Shown in pieces: positions 1 through 18,721 of a stretch of 41,597 bases of DNA. Source of the stretch: a virus. Lineage: Duplodnaviria > Heunggongvirae > Uroviricota > Caudoviricetes. The translations under genes were made by a program, and so were the position numbers. The stretch lies in the IMG/VR virus record IMGVR_UViG_640753023_000007; one strand, written 5' to 3'. The notes below the pieces were generated by a model. The model was not told the origin of the DNA. It searched no databases and saw nothing but the letters and a program-made list of their open reading frames with translations. Positions within the stretch are counted from its first letter, which is position 1; each line of letters starts with the position of its first letter.

Positions 1-1143
1 CTATGCTGTTTTGATATCTACGATAATCCAGTCTTTACCACGATCATCATTGTATCGGTCGGTCATTTTTCTGGATTTATGGCCTAACAACTTTTGCGTA
101 TCCAGACCCTGTTCCCGATATAACCGTTCTGACAGAGATCGCTGCTCATGAAATGTGGGCGCAGTTCCTTGCTCCCATTTTATGCCACATTTTTCCCGGG
201 CCTTTTTAAAAGCCGTTGTCAGAGTATTCGCAGAAACCTGGTCTCCTCTGTTTGCTTGAGAGGTAGTGTGACGGTAATGGACCAGATATTTACTAACAAC
301 AGCATCCCTGCACTGAGATATAACTTCACGAAGGGTAATATTCAGAGCATCGCATTTCAGGTTAAGCGGAATAGCAAGTTTTGAACCGGTTTTTTCCTGA
401 GTAATGTGCAACATGTCGTCCCATATATCAGAGAATTTCAAATTGCAGATATCGCCTAAACGTTGTCCAGTAACAAGAGCAAGTAGCATGCCGCATTTTA
501 AATAGGGCTGCCGTCTGCTTACGCTGTCAAATATTGCCTGCCATTCGGGCAGTGACAATCTTTGGCGGTTTACTCGATTTCGTGGTTGTTTTGTTGCCTG
601 CGCTGGGTTAAATCCTGGCGGAACATGTCCTGCGTGTTGTGCTTCTTTGAAGACGTCGATCAACACCATTCTCACGACTTGCGCCATCCTGTTATGACCT
701 TCAGCCTTTACAGCATCAATTATTTCGGCAATATCAAGTGCGGTAATATCCTTGAGGTGTTGCATTCCACAATGCTCACGGAAAAGACGAATGGGTTTGC
801 CTTTTTGCCGATAGGAGTTGGGTCTTAGTTCATTATGTTGCAGCCTGTCCTCTTGGATAGAAATATATTTATCAAGCCATTCTGTCACCGTAATGTCTGA
901 GCGCCTGCCTTTCATTCTTTCCAGACGCTCATTGACGCTTAATATTTGTCTGGTACGTTGTTCAGCAATAATGGTATTTGCTTCAGTAGCAACTTGTTTT
1001 GCTTCATTCTCATCAGTTCCTAAGCTATGAAAACGACCGGATAGTGGATGTTTGTATTGCCAATATACCTTTCCGGTTCGCTTATCTAATTTGCAATATA
1101 AATTGGGTATAGAGATTTTGTGAGATCGGGGTCTAGCAGCCAT
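1..1143 (-). CDS. int: Tyrosine integrase (lambda Int family, divergent from lambda Int itself)
   Basis: 380-aa minus-strand ORF whose stop codon is at window positions 1-3; C-terminal region carries tyrosine-recombinase-like segments (TFHEQRSLSERLY, LLGHKSRKMTDRY) alignable to lambda Int; overlaps the upstream xis-like ORF as in lambda. Confidence 0.9.
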   Translation of the reverse strand: MAARPRSHKISIPNLYCKLDKRTGKVYWQYKHPLSGRFHSLGTDENEAKQVATEANTIIAEQRTRQILSVNERLERMKGRRSDITVTEWLDKYISIQEDRLQHNELRPNSYRQKGKPIRLFREHCGMQHLKDITALDIAEIIDAVKAEGHNRMAQVVRMVLIDVFKEAQHAGHVPPGFNPAQATKQPRNRVNRQRLSLPEWQAIFDSVSRRQPYLKCGMLLALVTGQRLGDICNLKFSDIWDDMLHITQEKTGSKLAIPLNLKCDALNITLREVISQCRDAVVSKYLVHYRHTTSQANRGDQVSANTLTTAFKKAREKCGIKWEQGTAPTFHEQRSLSERLYREQGLDTQKLLGHKSRKMTDRYNDDRGKDWIIVDIKTA

Positions 1144-1369
1144 CAGCGATTATCCTTTGGAGTTTTGGGTTTGCGTTTATTGGGAGTTGCGGTTCTGCAA
1201 GCGTTCCTACAAAACGGGAATTTCGGTCAATCATCCAGTAGCGACCAACTTTTATAGCGGGTGGGGCCATCATTTTCCCTTGCGCGTATTTTTTCAGAAC
1301 TCGCTCACTTGGTGCTAAGTCCCCAAATTCTTCTTTAGCCCAGTCCTGTAAAGTGATTAGTCGAGACAT
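1133..1369 (-). CDS. xis: Excisionase-like protein
   Basis: 78-aa ORF immediately upstream of int and overlapping its start by 11 nt; small size and position match an excisionase; identity by position and size rather than clear motif. Confidence 0.65.
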   Translation of the reverse strand: MSRLITLQDWAKEEFGDLAPSERVLKKYAQGKMMAPPAIKVGRYWMIDRNSRFVGTLAEPQLPINANPKLQRIIADGC

Positions 1370-1508
1370 TTGTCCTCCTCTTAGCTGCTGAGGGAGTTTG
1401 TGACCGATATATCTGACATGATATTAAGCTCATGGCAGGTACATCTCTTGACTGGTCATAGAGATAAATTTAATGCTGAGAAATGCAGTATTGAATTTAT
1501 CAATTTTT

Positions 1509-1748
1509 CTATTTCCTGCGCATGTCACGTAACTTCTTAATGTGTTCTGCCGTTTCGATCTCTTCTGCTATCCGATCTGCATCAGCTTTATTCACAGGTT
1601 CAAAGTCATGATTAAAGCGGAACATGCTGGCGATACATGTTCTGCCTTTTCGGATGTAGTGAACTTTGTTGTGGGTAGAACGCAGGATTTTGCAGGGAGT
1701 GCCGTGGTGGTCGACGTACCAGGTGTTAGGGTCAATCACTCTGAACAT
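1509..1748 (-). CDS. Hypothetical phage protein (79 aa)
   Basis: ORF in the accessory region between xis and the recombination genes; overlaps the upstream ORF end by 17 nt, suggesting an operon; no recognisable motif. Confidence 0.45.
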   Translation of the reverse strand: MFRVIDPNTWYVDHHGTPCKILRSTHNKVHYIRKGRTCIASMFRFNHDFEPVNKADADRIAEEIETAEHIKKLRDMRRK

Positions 1749-2061
1749 TCTTGACCTTGTGTTGTGCGGATTGATATTCAGTGCTGATATTCACCTTTAT
1801 AGCGAACACCTTTACCGGTTTATCGCCAAAGTGCGGATGTGTGATTGTCTTCACTTCATATCCGTCATACGGAACATCAATTCTGCGACTGGAATCGTCG
1901 CGCTTCGGATATCCCTTTGTGATAATCAGGCGGTCATATTCCCGGAACATAATTCGCTTATTCCAGTAGTCATTACACAAGCGATACTCTTCCGTTTTCT
2001 CTCCGCGAATCATGGCATCGAAGTATTCACTTTTAACAGCAAGTTGCAGGTTAGCCATCAC
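1732..2061 (-). CDS. Hypothetical protein, possible ASCH/PUA-like fold
   Basis: 109-aa ORF; N-terminal pattern (EYFDAMIRGEKTEEYR then REYDRLI) resembles ASCH-superfamily proteins; ATGA start-stop overlap with the upstream TraR-like gene. Confidence 0.45.
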   Translation of the reverse strand: MMANLQLAVKSEYFDAMIRGEKTEEYRLCNDYWNKRIMFREYDRLIITKGYPKRDDSSRRIDVPYDGYEVKTITHPHFGDKPVKVFAIKVNISTEYQSAQHKVKNVQSD

Positions 2062-2279
2062 TTAATCCCCCTTTGTTTGCGGATAAGCTCCAGATCTTGC
2101 TGGCAACTGGCGCAAGTCCGACAACCCTGAACGGCCAGGCGTCTTCGTTCATCTATCGGATCGCCACACTCACAACAATGAGTGGCAGATACAGCCAGGT
2201 AGTTCAGGCGGCGCATTTTTATTGCTGTGTTGCGCTGTAATTCTTCTATTTCTGATGCTGAATCAATGATGTCTGCCAT
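2058..2279 (-). CDS. TraR/DksA-family C4 zinc-finger protein
   Basis: 73-aa ORF with two Cys pairs (CCEC ... CRTC) typical of the small TraR/DksA zinc-finger proteins found in lambdoid prophages. Confidence 0.7.
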   Translation of the reverse strand: MADIIDSASEIEELQRNTAIKMRRLNYLAVSATHCCECGDPIDERRRLAVQGCRTCASCQQDLELIRKQRGIK

Positions 2280-2331
2280 CTTTCATTAATCCCTGAACTG
2301 TTGGTTAATACGCTTGAGGGTGAATGCGAAC

Positions 2332-2355
2332 AATAAAAAAGGAGCCTGTAGCTCC
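2332..2355 (-). terminator. Candidate intrinsic terminator on the leftward (pL-derived) transcript
   Basis: On the minus strand a 5-bp GC stem (GGAGC / GCTCC, loop of 5 nt) is followed directly by TTTTTTATT; short stem, so weak. Confidence 0.35.
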
Positions 2356-2472
2356 CTGATAATTTTGCTTTTCATGTTCATCGTTCCTTAAAGACGCCGT
2401 TTAACATGCCGATTGCCAGGCTTAAATGAGTCGGTGTGAATCCCTTCAGCGTTACCGTTTCGCGGTGCTTCT

Positions 2473-2655
2473 TCAGTACGCTACGGCAAATGTCATTGAC
2501 GTTTTTGGAAACTGCTGTCTGACTTTTTTGATTTCAGAATTAGCCTGACGGGCAATGCTGCGAAGGGCGTTTTCTTGCTGAGGTGTCACTGAACAAGCCC
2601 CATGTCGGCAAGCATAAGCACACAGAATATGAAGCCCGCTGCCAGAAAAATGCAT
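2473..2655 (-). CDS. Hypothetical small protein in the position of lambda orf61
   Basis: 60-aa ORF downstream of the orf63-like gene on the leftward operon; assignment by position only. Confidence 0.35.
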   Translation of the reverse strand: MHFSGSGLHILCAYACRHGACSVTPQQENALRSIARQANSEIKKVRQQFPKTSMTFAVAY

Positions 2656-2665
2656 TCAGTGGTTG

Positions 2666-2857
2666 TCATACCTGGTCTCTCTCATCTGCTTCTGCTTTCG
2701 CCACCATCATTTCCAGCTTTTGTGAAAGGGATGTGGCTAACGTATGAAATTCTTCGTCTGTTTCTGCTGGTATTGGCACAAACCTGACTCCAATTTGAGC
2801 AAGGCTATGTGCCAAATCAATACTCGTTCTTAACTCAACAGGAGATGCTTTGTGCAT
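2666..2857 (-). CDS. Small protein matching lambda orf63 in size and position
   Basis: 63-aa ORF; its 28-nt overlap with the adjacent exo-proximal ORF matches the lambda orf63/orf60a arrangement as I recall it. Confidence 0.55.
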   Translation of the reverse strand: MHKASPVELRTSIDLAHSLAQIGVRFVPIPAETDEEFHTLATSLSQKLEMMVAKAEADERDQV

Positions 2858-3012
2858 ACCGCCCCCCGTTTATTATTTATCTCCTCAGCCAGCCGCTGGG
2901 CTTTCAGCGGATTTCGGATAACAGAAAGACCGTGAAATACCCAGCCTCGCTTTGTAACGGAGTAGACGAAAGTGATCGCGCCTACCCGGATATTATCGTG
3001 AGGATGGGTCAT
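2830..3012 (-). CDS. Small protein matching lambda orf60a in size and position
   Basis: Track ORF 2830-3018; starting at the second Met gives 60 aa and a 4-nt ATGA overlap with the exo stop, as in lambda. Confidence 0.5.
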
Positions 3013-3689
3013 CGCCATTGCTCTCCAAATACAAAACCAATTTCAGCCAGTGCTTCGTCCATTTTTTCGATGAACTCCGGCACCATCTCGTCAAAACTCG
3101 CCATGTACTTTTCATCCCGCTCAACCACGACATAATGCAGGCCTTCACGCTTCATTCGTGGGTCATAGTTGGCAAAGTACCAGGCATCTTTTCGTGTCAC
3201 CCACATGCTGTACTGCACCTGGGCCATGTAAGCCGACTTTATGGCCTCGAAACCACCGAGCCGGAACTTCATGAAATCCCGGGAGGTAAACGGGCATTTC
3301 AGCTCAAGGCCATTGCCGTCACTGCATAAACCATCGGGAGAGCAGGCGGTGCGCATACTTTCGTCGCGATAGATGATCGGGGATTCAGTAACATTCACGC
3401 CGGAAGTGAATTCAAACAGGGTTCTGGCGTCGTTCTCGTACTGTTTTCCCCACGCCAGCGCCTTAGCATTAACTTCCGGAGCCACACCGGTGCAAACCTC
3501 AGCCAGCAGGGTGTGGAAGTAGGACATTTTCATGTCAGGCCACTTCTTTCCTGAGCGGGGCTTTGCTATCACGTTGTGAACTTCTGAAGCGGTGATGACG
3601 CCGAGCCGTAATTTGTGCCATGCATCATCCCCCTGTTCGACAGCTCTCACGTCGATCCCGGTACGCTGCAGGATAATGTCCGGTGTCAT
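3009..3689 (-). CDS. exo: Lambda exonuclease (Red alpha)
   Basis: 226-aa ORF whose sequence ([39 protein letters not shown]...) matches lambda Exo essentially throughout as recalled; overlaps bet stop. Confidence 0.95.
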
Positions 3690-4471
3690 GCTGCCACCTT
3701 CTGCTCAGTGGCTTTCTGTTTCAGGAATCCAAGAGCTTTCACTGCTTCGGCCTGTGTCAGTTCTGACGATGCGCGAATGTCGCGGCGAAATATCTGGGAA
3801 CAGAGCGGCAATAAGTCGTCATCCCATGTTTTGTCCAGGGCAATCAGCAGAGTGTTAATCTCCTGCATGGTTTCATCGTTAACCGGAGTGATGTCGCGTT
3901 CCGGCTGACGTTCTGCAGTGTATGCGGTATTTTCGACAATGCGCTCGGCTTCATCCTTGTCATAGATACCAGCAAATCCGAAGGCCAGACGGGCACACTG
4001 AATCATGGCTTTATGCCGTAACATCCGTTTGGGATGCGACTGCCACGGCCCCGTGATTTCTCTGCCTTCGCGGGTTTTGAATGGTTCGCGGCGGCATTCA
4101 TCCATCCACTCGGTAACGCAGATCGGATGATTGCGGTCTTTGCGGTAAATCCGGCATGTACATGATTCATTGTCCTGCTCAAAGTCCATACCATCAAACT
4201 GCTGGTTTTCATTGATGATGCGGGACCAGCCATCAACGCCCACCACCGGAACAATGCCGTTCTGCTTATCAGGGAAGGCGTAAATTTCTTTCGTCCACGG
4301 ATTAAGGCCGTACTGGTTGGCGACGATCAACAATGCGATGAACTGCGCATCGCTGGCATCACCTTTAAATGCCGTCTGGCGAAGAGTGGTGATCAGTTCC
4401 TGTGGGTCGACAGAATCCATGCCGACACGTTCAGCCAGCTTCCCTGCCAGCGTTGCGAGTGCTGTACTCAT
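3686..4471 (-). CDS. bet: Recombination protein Bet (Red beta, single-strand annealing)
   Basis: 261-aa ORF matching lambda Bet ([59 protein letters not shown]...). Confidence 0.95.
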
Positions 4472-4476
4472 CCGTT

Positions 4477-4773
4477 TTATACCTCTGAATCAATATCAGC
4501 CTGATGGTGAGCAATGGTTTCAACTATGTACCGGATGTGTTCTGCCATGCGCTCCTGAAACTCAACATCGTCATCAAACGCACGGGTAATGGCTTTTTTG
4601 CTGGCCCCGTGGCGTTGTAAATGATCGATGCATAGCGATTCAAACAGGTGCTGGGGCAGGCCTTTTTCCATGTCGTCTGCCAGTTCTGCCTCTTTCTCTT
4701 CACGGGCGATCTGCTGGTAGTGACGCGCCCAGCTCTGAGCCTCAAGACGATCCTGAATGTAATAAGCGTTCAT
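4477..4773 (-). CDS. gam: Gam, RecBCD inhibitor (short GamS-length form, 98 aa)
   Basis: [24 protein letters not shown]... matches lambda Gam from its internal Met; the long-form start upstream is present but out of frame (see findings). Confidence 0.9.
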
Positions 4774-4848
4774 GGCTGAACTCCTGAAAATGGCTGTGAA
4801 AATATCGCCCGCGAAATGCCAGGCTGATTAGGAAAACAGGAAAGGGGG

Positions 4849-4992
4849 TTAGTGAATGCTTTTGCTTGATCTCAGTTTCAGTATTAATATCCATTTTTTA
4901 TAAGCGTCGACGGCCTCACGAAACATCTTTTCATCGCCAATAAAAGTGGCGATAGTGAATTTAGTCTGGATAGCCATAATTGTTTGATCCAT
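4849..4992 (-). CDS. kil: Kil (host FtsZ-targeting killing protein), 47 aa
   Basis: Internal Met of track ORF 4849-5118 gives [47 protein letters not shown], matching lambda Kil in length; overlaps the cIII 3-prime end. Confidence 0.8.
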
Positions 4993-5125
4993 TTTTTGGG
5001 ACTCCTGGCTGATTAAGTATGTCGATAAGGCGTTTCCATCCGTCACGTAATTTACGGGTGATTCGTTCAAGTAAAGATTCGGAAGGGCAGCCAGCAACAG
5101 GCCACCCTGCAATGGCATATTGCAT
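4961..5125 (-). CDS. cIII: CIII (FtsH/HflB protease inhibitor), 54 aa
   Basis: Translated by hand from the minus strand: [54 protein letters not shown], 54 codons plus stop; below the ORF-track size cutoff. Confidence 0.85.
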   Translation of the reverse strand: MQYAIAGWPVAGCPSESLLERITRKLRDGWKRLIDILNQPGVPKNGSNNYGYPD

Positions 5126-5197
5126 GGTGTGCTCCTTATTTATACATAACGAAAAACGCCTCGAGTGAAGCGTAATTGGTATGCGGTAACGCCGCGC

Positions 5198-5566
5198 TCA
5201 GGCGGCCTTGATAGTCATATCATCTGAATCAAATATTCCTGATGTATCGATATCGGTAATTCTTATTCCTTCACTACCATCCATTGGAGGCCATCCTTCC
5301 TGACCATTTCCATCATTCCAGTCGAACTCACACACAACACCATATGCATTTAAGTCGCTTGAAATTGCTATAAGCAGAGCATGTTGCGCCAGCATGATTA
5401 ATACAGCATTTAATACAGAGCCGTGTTTATTGAGTCGGTATTCAGAGTCTGACCAGAAATTATTAATCTGGTGAAGTTTTTCCTCTGTCATTACGTCATG
5501 GTCAATTTCAATTTCTATTGATGCTTTCCAGTCGTAATCAATGATGTATTTTTTGATGTTTGACAT
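5198..5566 (-). CDS. ea10: Ea10-like early protein
   Basis: 122-aa ORF in the cIII-ral interval, same size and position as lambda ea10. Confidence 0.8.
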   Translation of the reverse strand: MSNIKKYIIDYDWKASIEIEIDHDVMTEEKLHQINNFWSDSEYRLNKHGSVLNAVLIMLAQHALLIAISSDLNAYGVVCEFDWNDGNGQEGWPPMDGSEGIRITDIDTSGIFDSDDMTIKAA

Positions 5567-5588
5567 CTATTCATATCCTCATAGATAA

Positions 5589-5612
5589 AAAATCGCCCTC
5601 ACACTGGAGGGC
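5589..5612 (-). terminator. Candidate intrinsic terminator between ral and ea10 (tL-type)
   Basis: Minus-strand hairpin GCCCTC-(6 nt loop)-GAGGGC followed by GATTTTTTATCT. Confidence 0.45.
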
Positions 5613-5748
5613 AAAGAAGATTTCCAATAATCAGAACAAGTCGGCTCCTGTTTAGTTACGAGCGACATTGCTCCGTGTATTCACTCGTTGGAATGAATAC
5701 ACAGTGCAGTGTTTATTCTGTTATTTATGCCAAAAATAAAGGCCACTA

Positions 5749-5949
5749 TCAGGCAGCTTTGTTGTTCTGTTTACCAAGTTCTCTGGCAATCATTGCCGTC
5801 GTTCGTATTGCCCATTTATCGACATATTTCCCATCTTCCATTACAGGAAACATTTCTTCAGGCTTAACCATGCATTCCGATTGCAGCTTGCATCCATTGC
5901 ATCGTTTGAATTGTCCACACCATTGATTTGTATCAATAGTCGTAGTCAT
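5749..5949 (-). CDS. ral: Ral, restriction alleviation protein
   Basis: 66-aa ORF MTTTIDTNQWCGQFKRCNGCKLQSECMVKPEEMFPVMEDGKYVDKWAIRTTAMIARELGKQNNKAA matching lambda Ral. Confidence 0.9.
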   Translation of the reverse strand: MTTTIDTNQWCGQFKRCNGCKLQSECMVKPEEMFPVMEDGKYVDKWAIRTTAMIARELGKQNNKAA

Positions 5950-6019
5950 ACGGATAGTCCTGGTATTGTTCCATCACATCTTGAGGATGCTCTTCGAACT
6001 CTTCAAATTCTTCTTCCAT
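5933..6019 (-). CDS. Small acidic ORF (28 aa) in the position of lambda orf28
   Basis: Hand translation MEEEFEEFEEHPQDVMEQYQDYPYDYDY; AAGGTG Shine-Dalgarno-like sequence 5 nt upstream of the ATG; overlaps the ral start. Confidence 0.4.
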   Translation of the reverse strand: MEEEFEEFEEHPQDVMEQYQDYPYDYDY

Positions 6020-6162
6020 ATATCACCTTAAATAGTGGATTGCGGTAGTAAAGATTGTGCCTGTCTTTTAACCACATCAGGCTCGGTGGTTCTCGTGTAC
6101 CCCTACAACGAGAAATCGGATAAACTCTATTCACCCCTACAGAGAGCAAAAGAGAAACGCCG

Positions 6163-6744
6163 ATGAACAACTCATGGTGGCAGGAACTAATGCATTTTTT
6201 CCTGCAAGGAATGACACTTAAACAGTTGATTCATATGCTAATCATCCTGATCATATTGATTATTGTTATGCCGGTAAGCGTAAAAGAATGGATAAACCTG
6301 CATAATCCAGAAATCCTTCCTCATTACTGGATGTATTACATCCTGTTGTTTTGCGTTAGCTATGTGCTTAACGGCGTTGTTAATTCCGCTTATCACGCTG
6401 TGACTGAAAGAATTGAGGTATTCGCTGCTCAGAAGCGCAAATCTAAAGAAGAAAAATATGTGCAAGATTTGTTTGATTCGTTAACTCTTGGAGAAAGAGC
6501 GTATTTGGCATTCGCTGTAGCCGCTAATAACCAGCTACAAACGGAAAAGGGCGCTCATGAATCAATTTCATTGCTCAAAAAAGGACTCCTCGTTCGAAGG
6601 CCTCCTGCTGTTGGATATCCTGATACCGACCGTTTCGTTATCCCTGAAAGCTATAGACATGAGTGCTACATTAGGTTTGCCGGGAAGGCAGACAGCCTTA
6701 TGGATGAACTTATCGCTCAGGATAAGCATGGCAAAAACAAGTAA
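6163..6744 (+). CDS. sieB: SieB superinfection exclusion protein
   Basis: 193-aa plus-strand ORF with hydrophobic N-terminal region (LIHMLIILIILIIVMPV) matching lambda SieB; opposite orientation to flanking genes, as in lambda. Confidence 0.9.
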   Translation: MNNSWWQELMHFFLQGMTLKQLIHMLIILIILIIVMPVSVKEWINLHNPEILPHYWMYYILLFCVSYVLNGVVNSAYHAVTERIEVFAAQKRKSKEEKYVQDLFDSLTLGERAYLAFAVAANNQLQTEKGAHESISLLKKGLLVRRPPAVGYPDTDRFVIPESYRHECYIRFAGKADSLMDELIAQDKHGKNK

Positions 6745-6760
6745 TTAGCAAATGAATTTA

Positions 6761-7033
6761 TCATCTCGCCGTCAGTTGTTTTGATTTCCGGTAGCCTGCC
6801 GCGTAAAGAGCTACGTTCGGAAGACAAGTTGAACCTTCATATTTTCTGGTCAACGTTGTCAGAGTTATCACTTCTGCTCTCATTGCTGGTTTGAGCTTGC
6901 ATTGCAAGACCACTCGTGAAGGGGTTGGCCTGTGTAGCTTGTCGGAGCTGATCGCCTCCTGACTTTGCAGATTTGCGCGACGAGCTCTACGGCGAGAAGC
7001 TGCGGTGCCTTTAAATTCTGTTTTTCTGGACAT
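6761..7033 (-). CDS. N: Antitermination protein N (933W/H-19B-like type, not lambda N)
   Basis: Track ORF 6761-7105; start taken at internal Met (MSRKTEFKGTAASRRRARRANLQ, arginine-rich motif) preceded by GGGAGG at 5-nt spacing; C-terminus CLPNVALYAAGYRKSKQLTAR resembles N of 933W-type phages and P22 gp24. Confidence 0.8.
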   Translation of the reverse strand: MSRKTEFKGTAASRRRARRANLQSQEAISSDKLHRPTPSRVVLQCKLKPAMRAEVITLTTLTRKYEGSTCLPNVALYAAGYRKSKQLTAR

Positions 7034-7131
7034 GGATTCCTCCCGAATAAACTTTGGCGATGCAATCTCGAAGCTCCTCCTGAGACGGTTGCTTCGGCAT
7101 TGCATCCCACAGCTTATGTGGTTGGGTGATC

Positions 7132-7177
7132 TGGCTTTTCAGCCACGTAGTCGAGAGTCGACGTTGTTTAAAGAGCC
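7132..7177 (-). promoter_or_regulatory. nutL candidate (boxA-like GGCTCTTTAAACAACG plus boxB-like hairpin UGGCU-GAAA-AGCCA)
   Basis: On the minus strand, a boxA-like element and a 5-bp stem hairpin with GAAA loop, 16 nt apart, about 100 nt upstream of N; mirrored by a similar pair downstream of cro. Confidence 0.6.
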
Positions 7178-7179
7178 TG

Positions 7180-7300
7180 CCAGTCTGTTCCATTTGGCTT
7201 CCAGCGTCCTGCTGACGGTTAAATAGTACGATATGTACTTTACAAGATCAATACAATTTGTTGTAAGTTGGCGTGGTTTTTTATAACGCTTTGTATTTAA
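7180..7300 (-). promoter_or_regulatory. Probable pL promoter / OL operator region
   Basis: Intergenic region upstream of nutL and N; contains a 17-bp near-palindrome TAGTACGATATGTACTT (7224-7240) related to a motif in the cI-cro intergenic region; promoter hexamers not confidently assigned. Confidence 0.4.
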
Positions 7301-7438
7301 TAGTGTTGTTTTTTAGCGTGGATGTATTGCCTCGGCGATGTAAGGAGAGATCAGAATTGCGTGGTTTAGTGGGTTGCATCTATTTATTTTTCAATAAATA
7401 TAATTGGTTATGTGTTTTTAGGTGGGCGAACGTGAGGC

Positions 7439-7466
7439 AAAGAAAACCCGGCGCTGAGGCCGGGTT
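7439..7466 (-). terminator. Intrinsic terminator ending the cI-orfA-orfB transcript (analogous position to lambda tIMM)
   Basis: Minus-strand hairpin AACCCGGC-(loop)-GCCGGGTT followed by TTTTCTTTG, starting 3 nt after the orfB stop codon. Confidence 0.65.
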
Positions 7467-7469
7467 GTA

Positions 7470-8222
7470 TTATGCTGCAAGTCTCTTAACCCAAGTCTCT
7501 CTTTTGGAGAATGGTAGAACTTGGCTTGATTCATGGAAGAGTAAGGAGAGTTGTTGCATTTGATCACCAATTGCTTCGCTGTCTATAACAACAAATCTGT
7601 TGTTATACTCCTCACTTGAAGCTTTAAGATCAATTAGTTTCCCAAGCAATGAGTAAGCACTATTCCAGCTTCCTCCGTGTTTCACGCTTGATGTAAAAAC
7701 GTATTTAGGTATGTCGGTTTTTATTGTTACAGGGACGGTAATTTGATGTCCACTCAAGCCATATACGTTTTCACGAAGAGAAAGTGCGTCTCTAAGCTCT
7801 GTGTGATATAGATAATCAATAACCATACTTTCAAACTTTTCAGCTTGAACTGGCTGATACCAGTCTAACGACAAAGTTGATGCGAGTATACCAGCTCTAA
7901 TTATGTTCGATGTAATCGCACCGACATCCTTTTCTGTTGCCCAAGCAATGATTTCTCCTCGAGCATTGAGTTCTGCGCCTTCTTTAAGCAGTAATTGTCG
8001 TATCTCATCAAGTCGTTTTTTGGTAAGCGAGATCCCTCTTGCCTCCATATTCATTAAGGCATCGCATCTGTCACTAACTAAATACCTACCATTGACTTCA
8101 CGGATAAAGGCACCGACATGCTCTCCATCATCACAGTAAGTGAATGGACTGATAATTCTCAAGGTCTTGCCTATTGGATGGCATTCGAAACCTAGTTGTG
8201 AGATCACTGTTGAGCACATCAT
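7470..8222 (-). CDS. Hypothetical protein orfB (250 aa), second gene of the cassette in the rexAB position
   Basis: Long ORF with ATG start overlapping the orfA stop (ATGA); no transmembrane segment or catalytic motif recognised by eye; AT-rich relative to flanking genes; followed by a terminator. Confidence 0.65.
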   Translation of the reverse strand: MMCSTVISQLGFECHPIGKTLRIISPFTYCDDGEHVGAFIREVNGRYLVSDRCDALMNMEARGISLTKKRLDEIRQLLLKEGAELNARGEIIAWATEKDVGAITSNIIRAGILASTLSLDWYQPVQAEKFESMVIDYLYHTELRDALSLRENVYGLSGHQITVPVTIKTDIPKYVFTSSVKHGGSWNSAYSLLGKLIDLKASSEEYNNRFVVIDSEAIGDQMQQLSLLFHESSQVLPFSKRETWVKRLAA

Positions 8223-8776
8223 ATTCCAAACCCCATTTGCCCCGACTCATCTTCAAGCGGTAAAGGTATTCTCCCAGAGTAAGTTATGTTCAGATGTTTA
8301 CAGAAGTAATTCCAATACCCTACCAGGTCATCTGGGTTTATGTCATCTTCGATTGGAAACGCTATTCTATCACTATAGTATCCAGCTTCTTCATAGTATA
8401 CATGGTAGTGAGCACCGTAAATGATATCTTGGTACTTCGGATGATCGACCTTGTAACTATTCGTGTGTTTGTCAAAGTGATAGGTATCTACCGCGAAAAC
8501 CCTCTTGTTATGATAGAAAGCAATAATATTTATTTTAGGGTAAGAAATCGGGTCATCAGGTTCTGAATCCTGATCTGGTTTCCATTTCAGTTCAAACTTT
8601 AGCCCTTGTATAGGTATACAATCCTCATCCAAGGGGATGATATGGGCTTGTAGCCACATATCAGAGCGACTTGGTTTCTGTTTCCATTTAACGCCAGAAA
8701 AGTTAACTATTTTTTTACAATAAAGTACTTTATCAACTTCTACTTGGCTTGGCTGATAATCATCTATTTTTGCCAA
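8219..8776 (-). CDS. Hypothetical protein orfA (185 aa), first gene of the cassette directly downstream of cI
   Basis: ORF bounded upstream by an in-frame stop; first possible start is TTG at 8776 (next in-frame ATG is 39 codons in); acidic, Tyr/His/Trp-rich; no motif recognised; AT-rich. Confidence 0.55.
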   Translation of the reverse strand: MAKIDDYQPSQVEVDKVLYCKKIVNFSGVKWKQKPSRSDMWLQAHIIPLDEDCIPIQGLKFELKWKPDQDSEPDDPISYPKINIIAFYHNKRVFAVDTYHFDKHTNSYKVDHPKYQDIIYGAHYHVYYEEAGYYSDRIAFPIEDDINPDDLVGYWNYFCKHLNITYSGRIPLPLEDESGQMGFGI

Positions 8777-11171: not shown

Positions 11172-11869
11172 AAAACATCGCCGCACAGATGGTTAATTTT
11201 GACCGTGAGCAGATGCGTCGGATCGCCAACAACATGCCGGAACAGTACGACGAAAAGCCGCAGGTACAGCAGGTAGCGCAGATCATCAACGGTGTGTTCA
11301 GCCAGTTACTGGCAACTTTCCCGGCGAGTCTGGCTAACCGTGACCAGAACGAACTGAACGAAATCCGCCGCCAGTGGGTTCTGGCTTTCCGGGAAAACGG
11401 GATCACCACAATGGAACAGGTTAACGCAGGAATGCGCGTAGCCCGTCGGCAGAATCGACCATTTCTGCCATCACCCGGGCAGTTTGTTGCATGGTGCCGG
11501 GAAGAAGCATCCGTTATCGCCGGACTGCCAAACGTCAGCGAGCTGGTTGATATGGTTTACGAGTATTGCCGGAAGCGAGGCCTGTATCCGGATGCAGAGT
11601 CTTATCCGTGGAAATCGAACGCGCACTACTGGCTGGTTACCAACCTGTACCAGAACATGCGGGCCAATGCGCTGACTGACGCGGAATTACGACGCAAGGC
11701 TGCCGATGAACTGACCTGTATGACAGCGCGAATTAACCGTGGTGAGACGATACCTGAACCAGTAAAACAACTTCCTGTCATGGGCGGCAGACCTCTAAAT
11801 CGTGTTCAGGCGCTGGCGAAGATCGCAGAAATTAAAGCTAAGTTAGGACTGAAAGGAGCAAGTGTATGA
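11168..11869 (+). CDS. P: Replication protein P (DnaB helicase loader)
   Basis: 233-aa ORF matching lambda P; ATGA overlap with O stop. Confidence 0.95.
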   Translation: MKNIAAQMVNFDREQMRRIANNMPEQYDEKPQVQQVAQIINGVFSQLLATFPASLANRDQNELNEIRRQWVLAFRENGITTMEQVNAGMRVARRQNRPFLPSPGQFVAWCREEASVIAGLPNVSELVDMVYEYCRKRGLYPDAESYPWKSNAHYWLVTNLYQNMRANALTDAELRRKAADELTCMTARINRGETIPEPVKQLPVMGGRPLNRVQALAKIAEIKAKLGLKGASV

Positions 11870-12156
11870 CGGGCAAAGAGGCAATTATTCATTACCTGGG
11901 GACGCATAATAGCTTCTGTGCGCCGGACGTTGCCGCGCTAACAGGCGCAACAGTAACCAGCATAAATCAGGCCGCGGCTAAAATGGCACGGGCAGGTCTT
12001 CTGGTTATCGAAGGTAAGGTCTGGCGAACGGTGTATTACCGGTTTGCTACCAAGGAAGAACGGGAAGGAAAGATGAGCACGAACCTGATTTTTAAGGAGT
12101 GTCGCCAGAGTGCCACGATGAAACGGATATTGGCGGTATATGGAGTTAAAAGATGA
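11866..12156 (+). CDS. ren: Ren (Rex exclusion relief protein)
   Basis: 96-aa ORF overlapping the P stop; matches lambda Ren in size and position. Confidence 0.8.
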   Translation: MTGKEAIIHYLGTHNSFCAPDVAALTGATVTSINQAAAKMARAGLLVIEGKVWRTVYYRFATKEEREGKMSTNLIFKECRQSATMKRILAVYGVKR

Positions 12157-12181
12157 CCATCTACATCACTGAGCTAATAAC

Positions 12182-12213
12182 AGGCCTGCAGGTAATCGCA
12201 GGCCTTTTTATTT
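12182..12213 (+). terminator. Intrinsic terminator between ren and ninB (tR2-like)
   Basis: Perfect 8-bp stem AGGCCTGC / GCAGGCCT with 8-nt loop followed by TTTTTATTT. Confidence 0.7.
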
Positions 12214-12229
12214 GGGGGAGAGGGAAGTC

Positions 12230-12670
12230 ATGAAAAAACTAACCTTTGAAATTCGATCTCCGGCACATCAGCAAAACGCTATTCACGCAGTACAGCAAAT
12301 CCTTCCAGACCCAACCAAACCAATCGTAGTAACCATTCAGGAACGCAACCGCAGCTTAGACCAAAACAGGAAGCTATGGGCCTGCTTAGGTGACGTCTCT
12401 CGTCAGGTTGAATGGCATGGTCGCTGGCTGGATGCAGAAAGCTGGAAGTGTGTGTTTACCGCAGCATTAAAGCAGCAGGATGTTGTTCCTAACCTTGCCG
12501 GGAATGGCTTTGTGGTAATAGGCCAGTCAACCAGCAGGATGCGTGTAAGCGAATTTGCGGAGCTATTAGAGCTTATACAGGCATTCGGTACAGAGCGTGG
12601 CGTTAAGTGGTCAGACGAAGCGCGACTGGCTCTCGAATGGAAAGCGCGATGGGGAGATCGGGCTGCATGA
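12230..12670 (+). CDS. ninB: NinB (recombination mediator Orf family)
   Basis: Track ORF 12212-12670; start at MKKLTFEIRSPAHQQNAIHAVQQILPDPTKPIVVTIQERNRSLDQNRKLW preceded by GGAG; matches lambda NinB. Confidence 0.85.
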   Translation: MKKLTFEIRSPAHQQNAIHAVQQILPDPTKPIVVTIQERNRSLDQNRKLWACLGDVSRQVEWHGRWLDAESWKCVFTAALKQQDVVPNLAGNGFVVIGQSTSRMRVSEFAELLELIQAFGTERGVKWSDEARLALEWKARWGDRAA

Positions 12671-13194
12671 CTATCAAATCAAATACGCCAGCACACGACA
12701 AGGACTGCTGGCAAACGCCGCTTTGGCTTTTTGATGCACTGGATATTGAGTTTGGATTCTGGCTGGATTCGGCAGCGAGCGACAAAAATGCTCTGTGCGC
12801 TCACTGGCTAACTGAGGACGACGACGCGCTCAATTCTGAGTGGGTAAGCCACGGTGCAATCTGGAATAACCCACCGTACAGCAATATCAGGCCGTGGGTG
12901 GAAAAAGCCGCTGAGCAGTGTATACAACAGCGACAGACGGTAGTGATGCTTGTGCCAGAGGATATGTCTGTCGGATGGTTCAGCAAGGCTCTGGAGAGTG
13001 TTGACGAAGTTCGTATTATCACTGATGGACGGATTAATTTTATCGAACCATCGACAGGGCTGGAGAAGAAGGGAAACAGCAAAGGCTCCATGCTGCTGAT
13101 TTGGCGACCGTTCATCAGTCCTCGACGGATGTTTACTACCGTATCCAAAGCGGCATTGATGGCGATCGGGCAGGGCGTCAGGAGGGCTGCATGA
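12667..13194 (+). CDS. Phage DNA N6-adenine methyltransferase (Dam-like)
   Basis: Track ORF 12607-13194; start at Met overlapping ninB stop (ATGA); contains NPPY motif (WNNPPYSN) typical of N6-adenine methyltransferases; occupies the ninC position. Confidence 0.75.
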
Positions 13195-13367
13195 GACGAC
13201 AGCGACGAAGCATCACCGACATAATCTGCGAAAACTGCAAATACCTTCCAACGAAACGCTCCAGAAATAAACGCAAGCTAATCCCAAAAGAATCTGACGT
13301 AAAAACCTTCAATTACACAGCCCACCTGTGGGATATCCGGTGGCTAAGATATCGTGCGAGGAAATGA
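13191..13367 (+). CDS. ninE: NinE
   Basis: Track ORF 13101-13367; internal start [27 protein letters not shown]... matches lambda NinE; ATGA overlap with methylase stop. Confidence 0.7.
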
Positions 13368-13369
13368 CA

Positions 13370-13711
13370 ATGGATTATTCACAGTTAAGTGATTTTGAAA
13401 TTAACAGAATGGTAGGAGACATAATTTTTAAAGGCCTTTGGGCAAGTAAACCGGAAACATCAGGGAATAACACCAACAAATGGTATTACGGAAATGCTGA
13501 TACAACTTTTGAGCCATTAAATCATTTGCCTGACTACTGCAATGATCCGAGCGCTTCATGGCCGATTATTGAGAAATACAGGATTTCTATCTTAGACCAG
13601 TTAACTGAATGGTGTGTGGATGCAAAAGGCGTAAGCCCAATATTTGATACCAGACCTCTCCGCGCCGCCATGATTGTCTTTCTCCTGATGCAGGAGGCCA
13701 ATAATGCTTAG
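13370..13711 (+). CDS. Hypothetical nin-region protein (NinX-like)
   Basis: Track ORF 13328-13711; start placed at Met with AGGA 8 nt upstream; position between ninE and ninF. Confidence 0.45.
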
Positions 13712-13898
13712 CCCATCTCAATCCCTTCAATACCTGAAAGAAAGCATAGAGCGGGCTTCAATGTGCACAGAGTGGATTCTATCTAGGTTTAGCGCATACA
13801 GAAGATTGCCGGTAAAGGGCATGCCAAGCAAGTCGATGCTGCATATGCAAAAGAATGCGCGCTGGAAGGTATGGCGAGAACACAGGTTATGTGGCTGA
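13704..13898 (+). CDS. ninF: NinF-like protein with divergent C-terminal part
   Basis: 64-aa ORF; first 18 residues ([18 protein letters not shown]) resemble lambda NinF, remainder does not; overlaps upstream ORF stop. Confidence 0.5.
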
Positions 13899-13917
13899 AA
13901 GAGGGGGTTATTAAGGC

Positions 13918-14280
13918 GTGAATACCTACAGCATCACATTACCCTGGCCTCCGAGCAATAATCGCTATTACCGCCATAATCGCGGGCGCACGCACGTCAG
14001 CGCAGAGGGGCAGGCATACCGCGATAACGTCGCCCGAATCATTAAAAACGCAATGCTGGATATCGGCCTGGCTATGCCTGTGAAAATCCGCATTGAGTGC
14101 CACATGCCGGATCGCCGTCGCCGTGACCTGGATAATCTGCAAAAAGCCGCTTTTGACGCACTCACTAAAGCAGGTTTCTGGCTGGATGATGCTCAGGTCG
14201 TTGATTACCGCGTTGTGAAGATGCCTGTTACCAAAGGTGGGAGGCTGGAACTGACCATCACCGAAATGGGGAATGAATGA
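13918..14280 (+). CDS. rusA: RusA Holliday junction resolvase
   Basis: 120-aa [47 protein letters not shown]... matching E. coli DLP12 RusA; occupies the ninG slot. Confidence 0.9.
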
Positions 14281-14502: not shown

Positions 14503-14886
14503 ATGCGTGATATTCAGATGGTTCTTGAGCGTTGGGGTGCGTGGGCGGCTAATAATCATGAAGATGTGACCTGGTCGTCCATTGCCGCCGGTTTTAAGGG
14601 ATTAATTCCTTCAAAAGTAAAATCTCGCCCGCAATGTTGTGACGATGACGCGATGATCATTTGCGGGTGCATGGCCCGTCTGAAAAAGAACAACAGCGAT
14701 TTACACGATTTATTAGTAGATTATTATGTATGTGGTATGACATTCATGTCACTGGCAAGTAAGCATTGCTGCTCGGATGGTTATATCGGGAAAAGGTTAC
14801 AGAAGGCTGAGGGCATAATTGAAGGGATGTTAATGGCATTAGATATCCGGTTAGATATGGATATCGTTGCTAATAATTCTAATTGA
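14503..14886 (+). CDS. Q: Late gene antiterminator Q (DLP12 QuuD / phage 82-like type)
   Basis: Track ORF 14488-14886 begins with TTG; ATG at 14503 is preceded by GGAG; sequence [24 protein letters not shown]... with Cys-rich zinc-binding region matches QuuD-type Q. Confidence 0.85.
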
Positions 14887-15074: not shown

Positions 15075-16157
15075 TTAGAACTGATAAACCAGACCTACAG
15101 CGACGATGTCGTCGGTATCAATACCAGCTGTTTTGGTAAACTTACTATCGTCAATTAAGTTGATTTTGTAATCAACAAAAGTGGACATGTTTTTATTAAA
15201 GTAGTAAGTAGCACCGACATCGACATACTTGACTAAGTCTCGGTCACCATGAACACCAAGGTCTTTACCTTTTGACTGAAGGTAAGCAACAGATGGACGC
15301 AGACCGAAGTCAAACTGATATTGTGCTACTGCTTCAAAGTTTTGTGCTTTGTTTGCAATATGGTTATTACCAAAAACGGTCATATTCTGAGTTTCAGAAT
15401 ATGTGGTAGCCAGATAGATATTGTTCGCATCATATTTCAGGCCTGCAGCCCATACTTCCGCATTTTTGCCGGAGGCATTGAATTTGCTCTTACCATAGGC
15501 GACCTGACCGTCAGTGCGATCTGATTTAGCATAGGTTGCACCCACGCCGAATCCTTCATACTCATAAGTAGTGGAGAAACCGAAACCATCACCATTGGCT
15601 TCAGTTACGTCAGTGCGGTCATTTTTACCCTGATACTGAGCAGCAAAGTTCAGGCCATCGACCAGACCAAAGAAGTCGTTGTTACGATAAGTTGCAACAC
15701 CAGTAGTGCGACCAGTCATGAACACATCTGTTTGGGTCCAGGTATCACCACCGAATTCTGGCAGAACGTCAGTCCACGCACCGATGTCGTATGCTACACC
15801 GTAGTTACGGCCGTAATCGATTGAGCCGTAATCACCAAATTTCAGGCCTGCAAATGCAAGACGGGTTTTGTCTTTGGAAGAACCTTGAGATTCAGCACGG
15901 TTGCCTTTGAATTCATATTCCCACTGACCGAAACCAGTCAGTTGATCGTTGATTTGGGTTTCACCTTTGAAGCCAAGACGGGCATAAGTAGTATCACCAT
16001 CATCTGCATCATTAGAGGAGAAGTAGTGCTTGGCATTAACTTTCCCGTATAGATCCAGCTTGTTACTGTCTTTATTATAAATTTCAGCTGCCTGAGCAGA
16101 CATCGCCATCAGTACTGATGCAGCTACAGCAGAAATTGCCACTGTTAATTTTTTCAT
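15075..16157 (-). CDS. nmpC: Outer membrane porin NmpC/OmpD-like (lysogenic conversion moron)
   Basis: Track ORF 15075-16217; start at [23 protein letters not shown] (signal peptide); C-terminal residue F; general-porin family features; inserted antisense between Q and the lysis genes as in DLP12. Confidence 0.9.
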
Positions 16158-16582
16158 TGTACGCCCTTTTTTTGAACTATTATTAAAAAATGATGTCACT
16201 GCGCGATAAATATTCATCTAATCAATGTGATTATTTCAAGATGTAAGTTTTAGTTTCTCATTTAATTTGTGAAGTAGATCTCTATTTTTATCTGAACCTT
16301 TTCTATCTAATCCTATTCATGGCTCTTGTCTGAACAAAAATAAATCTATTAGCTAATTTATATTAATGGCACTTATTTATAAGTGCTCTATAATTCTTTA
16401 GCTTAATTTAAACAAACTAAAAATAACATTGGAAATTATTAACTGGTTATTTGTTGAAGTTTTCTTATGCATTTGTGGTGGTGTTTTGAACACTCGGTGG
16501 CATTCTCACAAATATCATTTAGTAGTTTACGTACGTAAAAAATTGGTTATGCTGTTAAGAGTGGTTACTTCGTCACACAGCT

Positions 16583-17947: not shown

Positions 17948-18241
17948 TTATTGTGAGCAATACACACGCGCTTCCAGCGGAGTATAAATGCCTAAAGTAA
18001 TAAAACCGAGCAATCCATTTACGAATGTTTGCTGGGTTTCTGTTTTAACAACATTTTCTGCACCACCACAAATTTTTGCTGCATCGACAGTTTTCTTCTG
18101 CCCAATTCCCGAAACGAAGAAATGATGGGTGATGGTTTCCTTTGGTGTTACTGCTGTAGGTTTGTTTCCAACAGTAAACGTCTGTTGAGCACATCCTGTA
18201 ATAAGCATTGCCAGAGCGGCAGAAAACAACATTTTTTTCAT
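17948..18241 (-). CDS. bor: Bor lipoprotein (serum resistance)
   Basis: Track ORF 17948-18289; start at MKKMLFSAALAMLITGCAQQ (lipobox LITGC); 97 aa; matches lambda Bor. Confidence 0.9.
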   Translation of the reverse strand: MKKMLFSAALAMLITGCAQQTFTVGNKPTAVTPKETITHHFFVSGIGQKKTVDAAKICGGAENVVKTETQQTFVNGLLGFITLGIYTPLEARVYCSQ

Positions 18242-18721
18242 CTTATTATCCTGCATTGTTAAAAACGGCAGAATCCTATGTGACAACAATTAAACGATAG
18301 TTAAATGGATTGATGAAAATTAAAACTACACAGGTGGGCTCAGACTATTGGAGGAAGTTGGGGACACTCAGAATCCTGTGGAATGAAATAAACCGGTCTA
18401 TCCGTCCATTACCCTTTTAGCTGCGCTGTATCGTCGCCGTATTCCCGCATTAACCATGACCGTAGCCCGACGGGGAATTCCTTCTGCGTGAGTGTGCGGG
18501 AATAATTAAAAACGATGCACACCGGGTTTTTACCGCGTTAATGATTCGCGGGTTTATCCCGGTGCGATGGTGGAAGAAACAGGAAGCTGTATTACAGAAA
18601 GTGCTACTACTGTATCCCGATGCGATGTATGTAATGTGAGTCAGATAATGGCACAGGATGTGGTGATGTGGCAGTCTGGAACACAGGATATATTGTCAGA
18701 ATAAGACCCGTAGGAATAAAA

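Follow-up and report, generated by a model that had tools for sequence, protein, structure and literature searches.

A predicted orphan DNA N-6-adenine methyltransferase of the phage T1/HP1/VT2 Dam family in the nin region of a lambdoid prophage

The window analyzed in this study, that is, the whole stretch of 41,597 nucleotides of the virus record IMGVR_UViG_640753023_000007 (Caudoviricetes), is a nearly complete lambdoid prophage. The genes int, xis, exo, bet, gam, kil, ral, sieB, N, a two-gene cassette, cI, cro, cII, O, P, and ren, in this order from the left, are followed by ninB, the methylase gene considered here, ninE, ninX, rusA, ylcG, quuD, a porin gene, the lysis genes, and the head and tail genes. 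The features relevant for the methylase locus are as follows.

5749..5949 (-), ral, full-length match to PF11058 (Ral), 1.7e-48
12182..12213 (+), putative counterpart of tR2, an intrinsic terminator located after ren and before ninB; 6 of the 8 stem pairs are GC, and TTTTTATTT comes next
12230..12670 (+), ninB (orf), the upstream neighbor, encoding a recombination mediator, match to PF05772, 1.1e-54
12667..13194 (+), methylase gene (dam-type, orphan phage N-6-adenine DNA methyltransferase), from the ORF list, the raw sequence, and the family HMMs
12667..12670 (+), ATGA overlap of the ninB stop (TGA 12668-12670) and the methylase start, read from the sequence
12671..13197 (+), mosaic cassette of 527 bp without DNA homology to lambda, in the slot of ninC and ninD, from blastn
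12757..12777 (+), codons of F31-W-L-D34-S-A36-A37, predicted strand beta1, probable equivalent of the SAM-binding motif I
12868..12879 (+), codons of N68-P69-P70-Y71, catalytic motif IV of amino-methyltransferases, from the sequence, invariant in homologues
13191..13194 (+), ATGA overlap of the methylase stop and the ninE start (ATG 13191), read from the sequence
13191..13367 (+), ninE, the downstream neighbor, match to PF05322, 1.8e-41

The methylase ORF, as read from the sequence, is 528 nt long and consists of 175 codons and a stop, with the ATG at 12667 and the TGA at 13192-13194. An earlier sequence-only reading of the locus had described an NPPY-containing ORF of 175 aa, flanked by ninB and ninE and overlapping each of them in an ATGA, and both the sequence and the ORF list agree with this description. 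Junctions of the ATGA type are the norm throughout lambdoid nin regions (PMC8022706) and therefore carry no special meaning for the methylase gene. The ATG at 12667 is the RefSeq start of the identical gene, and the family HMMs are matched from profile position 1. The longest ORF in the same frame (195 aa) opens at a GTG at 12607, inside ninB; this start was rejected, since the HMMs align from residues 2-4 of the ATG-initiated protein, RefSeq uses the ATG, and the GTG lies within ninB. The antisense ORF at 12801..13148 (115 aa) was discarded as a presumed shadow of the methylase coding frame.

The methylase cassette occupies more than the slot of lambda ninC alone, as seen from the blastn comparison with lambda. 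Positions 11386-12670 of the window correspond to P-ren-ninB with 96.7% identity, ending at the ninB stop codon, and positions 13198-13364 correspond to ninE with 94.6% identity, with nothing matched between 12670 and 13198. Given the extent of this gap in the lambda homology, both ninC and ninD have given way to the cassette; the sequence-only reading had the ninC slot right, but the replacement extends to ninD as well. Such a replacement, with junctions at gene boundaries, is a classic mosaic swap of lambdoid phages. In VT2-Sakai, the methylase cassette together with ninE (positions 12660-13364 of the window) is 97.7% identical and is joined to a ninB allele without DNA homology to the lambda-like ninB of the window.

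The stem-loop at 12182-12213 lies inside the segment that is 96.7% identical to lambda and, judging by its position, is the probable counterpart of tR2. With a tR2-like terminator upstream of ninB, expression of the nin region would depend on N antitermination. No restriction endonuclease gene was found next to the methylase gene, whose flanking genes encode NinB and NinE, and in the identical locus of Nissle 1917, as annotated in RefSeq, RusA is the sole nuclease of the nin region. Having no adjacent nuclease gene, the methylase is an orphan. Further downstream, a C-terminal fragment of a DUF1364 gene (about 13832..13921, plus strand) is situated just upstream of rusA (13918..14280). This fragment, an incomplete pseudogene in Nissle 1917 according to RefSeq, is probably what a deletion between ninX and rusA has left behind in the nin region. 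A 64-aa ORF at 13704..13898 has no Pfam match.

The Pfam scan of the methylase at E<=0.01 returned a single family, PF05869 (Dam), with an E-value of 3.7e-65 and a score of 219.1 bits (cutoff 28.1), covering profile positions 1-167 of 169. The NCBIfam equivalog TIGR01712 (phage_N6A_met) is matched over positions 1-165 of 165 with 1.2e-79 and 265.6 bits (cutoff 97.05), the PHROGs family phrog_111 (DNA methyltransferase) with 8.3e-88, and the best PADLOC match is oMTase (orphan methyltransferase) with 1.6e-19. The PF05869 and TIGR01712 scores, far above the cutoffs, indicate that the ORF is not a chance one and, with the HMM assignment that the sequence-only reading had proposed as a check, identify its predicted product as a full-length member of the phage N-6-adenine-methyltransferase family (PF05869/TIGR01712), which includes the Dam proteins of T1, HP1, and VT2. 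In the same scan, neither PF02086 (MethyltransfD12, the family of E. coli and T4 Dam) nor MT-A70 (PF05063) was matched at E<=0.01, and the catalytic motif is NPPY, not DPPW. The methylase is thus outside the E. coli/T4 Dam family and outside MT-A70. In the literature, PF05869 is mentioned in papers on fungal DIRS/Ngaro retrotransposons and on oomycete 6mA methyltransferases.

The closest characterized relative is orf32 of VT2-Sakai (NP_050531.1), identical to the methylase in 174 of 175 residues, which appears to be the protein named M.EcoVT2Dam. The two proteins have the same length, and their genes occupy the same slot directly upstream of ninE with the same stop/start overlaps, whereas the upstream ninB alleles are unrelated in DNA. 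The sole difference between the proteins is D51 in the window against A51 in VT2-Sakai, in a hypervariable column where A, R, Q, E, S, or K occurs among the homologues. Nine nucleotides distinguish the two genes, and eight of these differences are synonymous, a pattern that fits purifying selection. M.EcoVT2Dam is also present in 933W, Phi24B, HK97, 434, HK140, and Sf101. The methylase is thus an ordinary phage protein that RefSeq already annotates, that an equivalog HMM is dedicated to, and that is one residue away from an enzyme cloned in 2001.

More distant relatives are the Dam proteins of phage T1 (YP_003925.1, 237 aa) and of the Haemophilus phages HP1/HP2, the founding members of PF05869/TIGR01712. 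The T1 and HP1/HP2 Dam proteins have GATC m6A activities. T1 Dam, which itself scores 1.7e-70 against PF05869, is 33% identical to the methylase over 158 residues (E 8e-27) and shares with it the blocks WxTP, LDxAAS, NPPYS, LxPxD, and NxKGS. It differs by about 45 extra N-terminal residues and by an insertion before the RI/LxF strand, and its source is a virulent siphovirus, whereas the methylase gene of the window resides in a lambdoid nin region.

In the alignment of 54 homologues (59-98% identity), 41 columns are invariant, and all family-invariant residues are present in the methylase. Among them are T17-P18, E28-F29, F31, L33-D34-x-A36, N68-P69-P70-Y71-S72, P97-x-D99, D113-E114-x-R116, K139-G140, and I145-W146-R147-P148. 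The AlphaFold2 model built on this alignment (pLDDT 88.6, pTM 0.87) consists of alternating strands and helices, with NPPY directly following the predicted strand 64-68. Judging by its position in the fold, F31-x-L-D34-x-A-A (strand 31-36) is the probable SAM-binding motif I, and E50, after strand 46-48, is a candidate for motif II by position only. A separate target-recognition domain is absent from the 175 residues in the model.

Foldseek searches of viral models matched phage DNA N-6-adenine methyltransferases at TMq 0.8-0.89 and, among others, giant-virus PCIF1-like proteins. The best match in PDB is CAPAM/PCIF1 (probability 1.00, TMq 0.55-0.62), followed by TrmM and CamA, whereas E. coli Dam (4rtl; E 0.21, TMq 0.32) and the METTL3-METTL14 chains (E>0.1, TMq about 0.2) are marginal. 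The predicted fold is that of a class I (Rossmann-like) SAM-dependent methyltransferase. The lack of a methyltransferase fold would have refuted the sequence-only reading; the AlphaFold2 model and the Foldseek matches instead support a methyltransferase. Sequence searches of PDB, both with the single protein and with the 54-sequence profile, detected no relative of the methylase, so that by this sequence criterion none of the solved structures belongs to the PF05869 family. Hits to SdiA, a DHH protein, and designed proteins in these searches (E>0.1) were rejected as noise.

The assignment as a Dam-like orphan N6-adenine methyltransferase is thus upheld by PF05869, TIGR01712, phrog_111, PADLOC oMTase, the structural model, and Foldseek, with one refinement: the term Dam-like fits the reported activity but not the sequence family, as seen from the missing PF02086 match and the marginal similarity to 4rtl. 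The alpha-class enzymes E. coli Dam and T4 Dam (PF02086) have the same reported target, N6 of adenine in GATC, the same general class I methyltransferase fold, and a (D/N)PP(Y/F) catalytic loop. However, sequence homology to the methylase is undetectable, the motif order and the size differ, and the methylase, unlike E. coli and T4 Dam, has no separate DNA-recognition domain. The relationship between them is one of functional convergence, not of family membership.

PCIF1/CAPAM (PDB 6irw and 6iry), a cap-specific mRNA adenosine N6-methyltransferase, is the closest solved structure, aligned over about 180 columns, but it is a eukaryotic RNA enzyme with 13-16% identity, of which about 470-490 residues were crystallised, and has a helical cap-binding domain. 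On the predicted model it is a structural relative only. Other orphan adenine methylases of E. coli prophages, of the M.EcoPA8orf6770P and M.EcoGV type, were likewise labeled Dam and predicted to recognize GATC, but they belong to MT-A70, contain DPPW, and are encoded near the integrase end of the prophage. For instance, M.EcoPA8orf6770P, once annotated as a GATC Dam, is a 16S rRNA methyltransferase acting with the partner PNB-2 (PMC10810198, Gong et al. 2023). The preference of this Dam-like protein for 16S rRNA demonstrates that such labels can mislead. The identification of the methylase with the rRNA enzyme of PMC10810198 was rejected, since the latter is an MT-A70 protein with DPPW, an integrase-end location, and a partner gene; no gene similar to M.EcoPA8orf6770P was found among the scanned left-arm ORFs of the window. 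The non-specific types M.EcoGI/GII and PhiOS31_p25, set apart by the descriptions in the respective papers, were rejected as well.

At an identity of at least 95%, the methylase gene occurs in 1565 of 5426 complete E. coli genomes (about 29%), in up to five places per genome, and in 244 phage records, including inducible phages. Most of these records are Stx-converting and other lambdoid phages, such as 933W, 434, HK140, and Sf101. The methylase DNA is 100% identical in phages ev207, ev017, PhiR57_1, and PhiR63_2, and the chromosomes of CFT073, Nissle 1917, and ATCC 11775 match the surrounding 2.9 kb with 100% identity. The RefSeq product name "phage N-6-adenine-methyltransferase" is given to the identical Nissle 1917 gene (WP_000153286.1) and is listed for the 100% matches in CFT073 and ATCC 11775 as well.

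The same prophage is found next to icd in Nissle 1917 (NZ_CP022686.1, locus 6462..8067 against window 1..6100), where an ISEc52 element and a truncated integrase stand in place of the left arm from int to ral. The nin region has its best CFT073 match in two pieces, with an IS3-family transposase annotated beneath. Of these copies of the prophage, the one in the window is better preserved, as it keeps int, xis, exo, bet, gam, kil, and ral.

Three further loci of the window were recorded. The cassette between N and cI consists of two genes on the minus strand (7470..8222 and 8219..8776) that encode a 250-aa DUF1828 protein and a 185-aa protein with a weak match to DUF6978. PADLOC gives weak matches to the candidate defense system PDC-M24 (4.7e-10 for subunit B and 4.8e-4 for subunit A). 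The cassette occupies the position of lambda rexA/rexB, and it may be a lysogen-expressed exclusion or defense module. An OmpC/NmpC-like porin gene (15075..16217, minus strand, 380 aa), annotated as "porin OmpC" in the Nissle 1917 copy in RefSeq, is encoded on the opposite strand, flanked by the gene of the Q antiterminator, quuD (14503..14886), and the lysis genes, an arrangement similar to that in DLP12. Finally, a gene for an iss/bor serum-survival lipoprotein is located at about 17948..18289 on the minus strand.

M.EcoVT2Dam is described in PMC6602927, with reference to Radlinska & Bujnicki 2001 (pmid 11720311), as an enzyme "known to target 5'-GATC-3'". By analogy with this nearly identical protein, the methylase most likely modifies the adenine of GATC. 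Expression data are available for the dam copy of Phi24B, reported to encode a protein 100% identical to that of VT2-Sakai: its expression changed significantly on induction, the authors tie the pattern to the lytic cycle, and the protein was detected immunologically in lysogen cultures (PMC3342100). Dam methylation is reportedly incomplete in lambda and P22 virions, since replication of the DNA outstrips its modification (PMC8022706). Radlinska's group describes what phage Dam enzymes do as "still not well understood" (PMC7556043). In our literature searches, the only reports bearing on the function of a nin-region Dam were the cloning paper and speculation, and no experiment showing restriction protection by any such enzyme was found.

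Based on these observations, we suggest that the methylase, with its single domain and NPPY catalytic loop, would transfer methyl groups from SAM to N6 of adenine in DNA and that it is encoded by a delayed-early gene of the pR operon that would be translationally coupled to ninB and ninE. It would be made only after N antitermination, in infection or induction, and would top up GATC methylation on fast-replicating phage DNA left under-methylated by the host Dam. Progeny genomes would then exit the cell fully GATC-methylated whatever the capacity of the host Dam, and full methylation might shield their DNA from GATC-directed, methylation-sensitive nucleases. We consider it very probable that the methylase is such a small orphan GATC enzyme of the T1/HP1/VT2 family, expressed as delayed-early and topping up the methylation of replicating phage DNA. 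The tR2-like terminator upstream and the lytic-linked expression in Phi24B point to a benefit for replicating or progeny DNA rather than for the resting prophage. Since the reported target is GATC, the same as that of the host Dam, protection is possible only against GATC-directed, methylation-sensitive nucleases. An anti-restriction role is plausible within these bounds, and the payoff could equally be regulatory or lie in keeping MutH or SeqA from acting on the phage DNA.

GATC is avoided in the window, with 123 sites against 169 +/- 13 in dinucleotide shuffles; under the Markov model 198.6 sites are expected, and the resulting O/E of 0.62 is the second lowest among the sixteen 4-bp palindromes, the lowest being CTAG (0.23). 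This avoidance counts against the topping-up explanation, since it would be needless if self-methylation were fully protective. In an alternative reading, GATC is indeed methylated but the payoff is not anti-restriction; full methylation would instead block MutH nicking or SeqA binding at hemi-methylated or unmethylated GATC, or would tune phage promoters and lysogeny stability. The sites are depleted, yet 123 of them remain in the window. No GATC-specific restriction system is known to be common in E. coli. Stable lysogeny of 933W reportedly needs the host Dam, as cited in PMC3342100, whose authors speculate that the host enzyme is supplemented by the phage one. However, the expression described there is lytic, not lysogenic, which argues against a role in lysogeny maintenance, and the gene is dispensable, as lambda and many lambdoid phages have ninC/ninD in this slot. 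We regard a payoff of this kind as a tentative, rather unlikely alternative.

It is much less probable that the substrate is other or broader than GATC DNA, for instance, due to relaxed adenine specificity or to RNA as a target, possibly with a partner protein. The nearest solved structures, CAPAM/PCIF1 (TMq 0.55-0.62) and TrmM, are RNA m6A(m) methyltransferases, and the methylase has no separate target-recognition domain; moreover, among adenine methylases of prophages, PhiOS31_p25 and M.EcoGI/II are non-specific, and M.EcoPA8orf6770P prefers rRNA. These precedents belong to other families, though: M.EcoPA8orf6770P is an MT-A70 enzyme with DPPW, and PhiOS31_p25 and M.EcoGI/II are set apart from the Dam homologues by the descriptions in their papers. 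T1 Dam, also a PF05869 protein, is reportedly a GATC enzyme. M.EcoVT2Dam, with 174 of 175 residues identical, is reported as GATC-specific in PMC6602927, and in strain 95NR1, which has two extra copies, no additional motif was attributed to the enzyme. Accordingly small is the chance we assign to a second substrate (RNA or single-stranded replication intermediates) or a relaxed specificity that would matter in lytic growth. The least probable of the readings considered is that the prophage is decaying and the gene has no current function in it, whether as neutral mosaic cargo or as an inactive remnant. The slot is not essential and can hold ninC/ninD instead, the copies of the prophage in Nissle 1917 (truncated int and an IS) and in CFT073 (split match) are degraded, and a DUF1364 pseudogene fragment lies nearby. 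But the ORF is intact and retains every family-invariant residue, eight of the nine differences from VT2-Sakai are synonymous, copies at 95% identity or more are carried by 1565 of 5426 E. coli genomes and by 244 phage records with inducible phages among them, and the protein was detected immunologically in Phi24B lysogen cultures (PMC3342100).

The preferred reading, a lytic GATC methylase that tops up the modification of phage DNA, also limits what the gene can be expected to do for the lysogen. The sequence-only reading had credited the prophage with two anti-restriction functions, ral and the methylase. The ral gene is indeed present, but the claim over-reaches, since the methylase duplicates a host activity, any protection by it is hypothetical, and the genes are lytic. 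Both ral and the methylase gene are early lytic by position, and their products would thus serve infecting or progeny DNA, not the resting prophage. The analysis settles the identity of the methylase for the annotation of this window and corrects the notion of a resting prophage armed by this gene against restriction.
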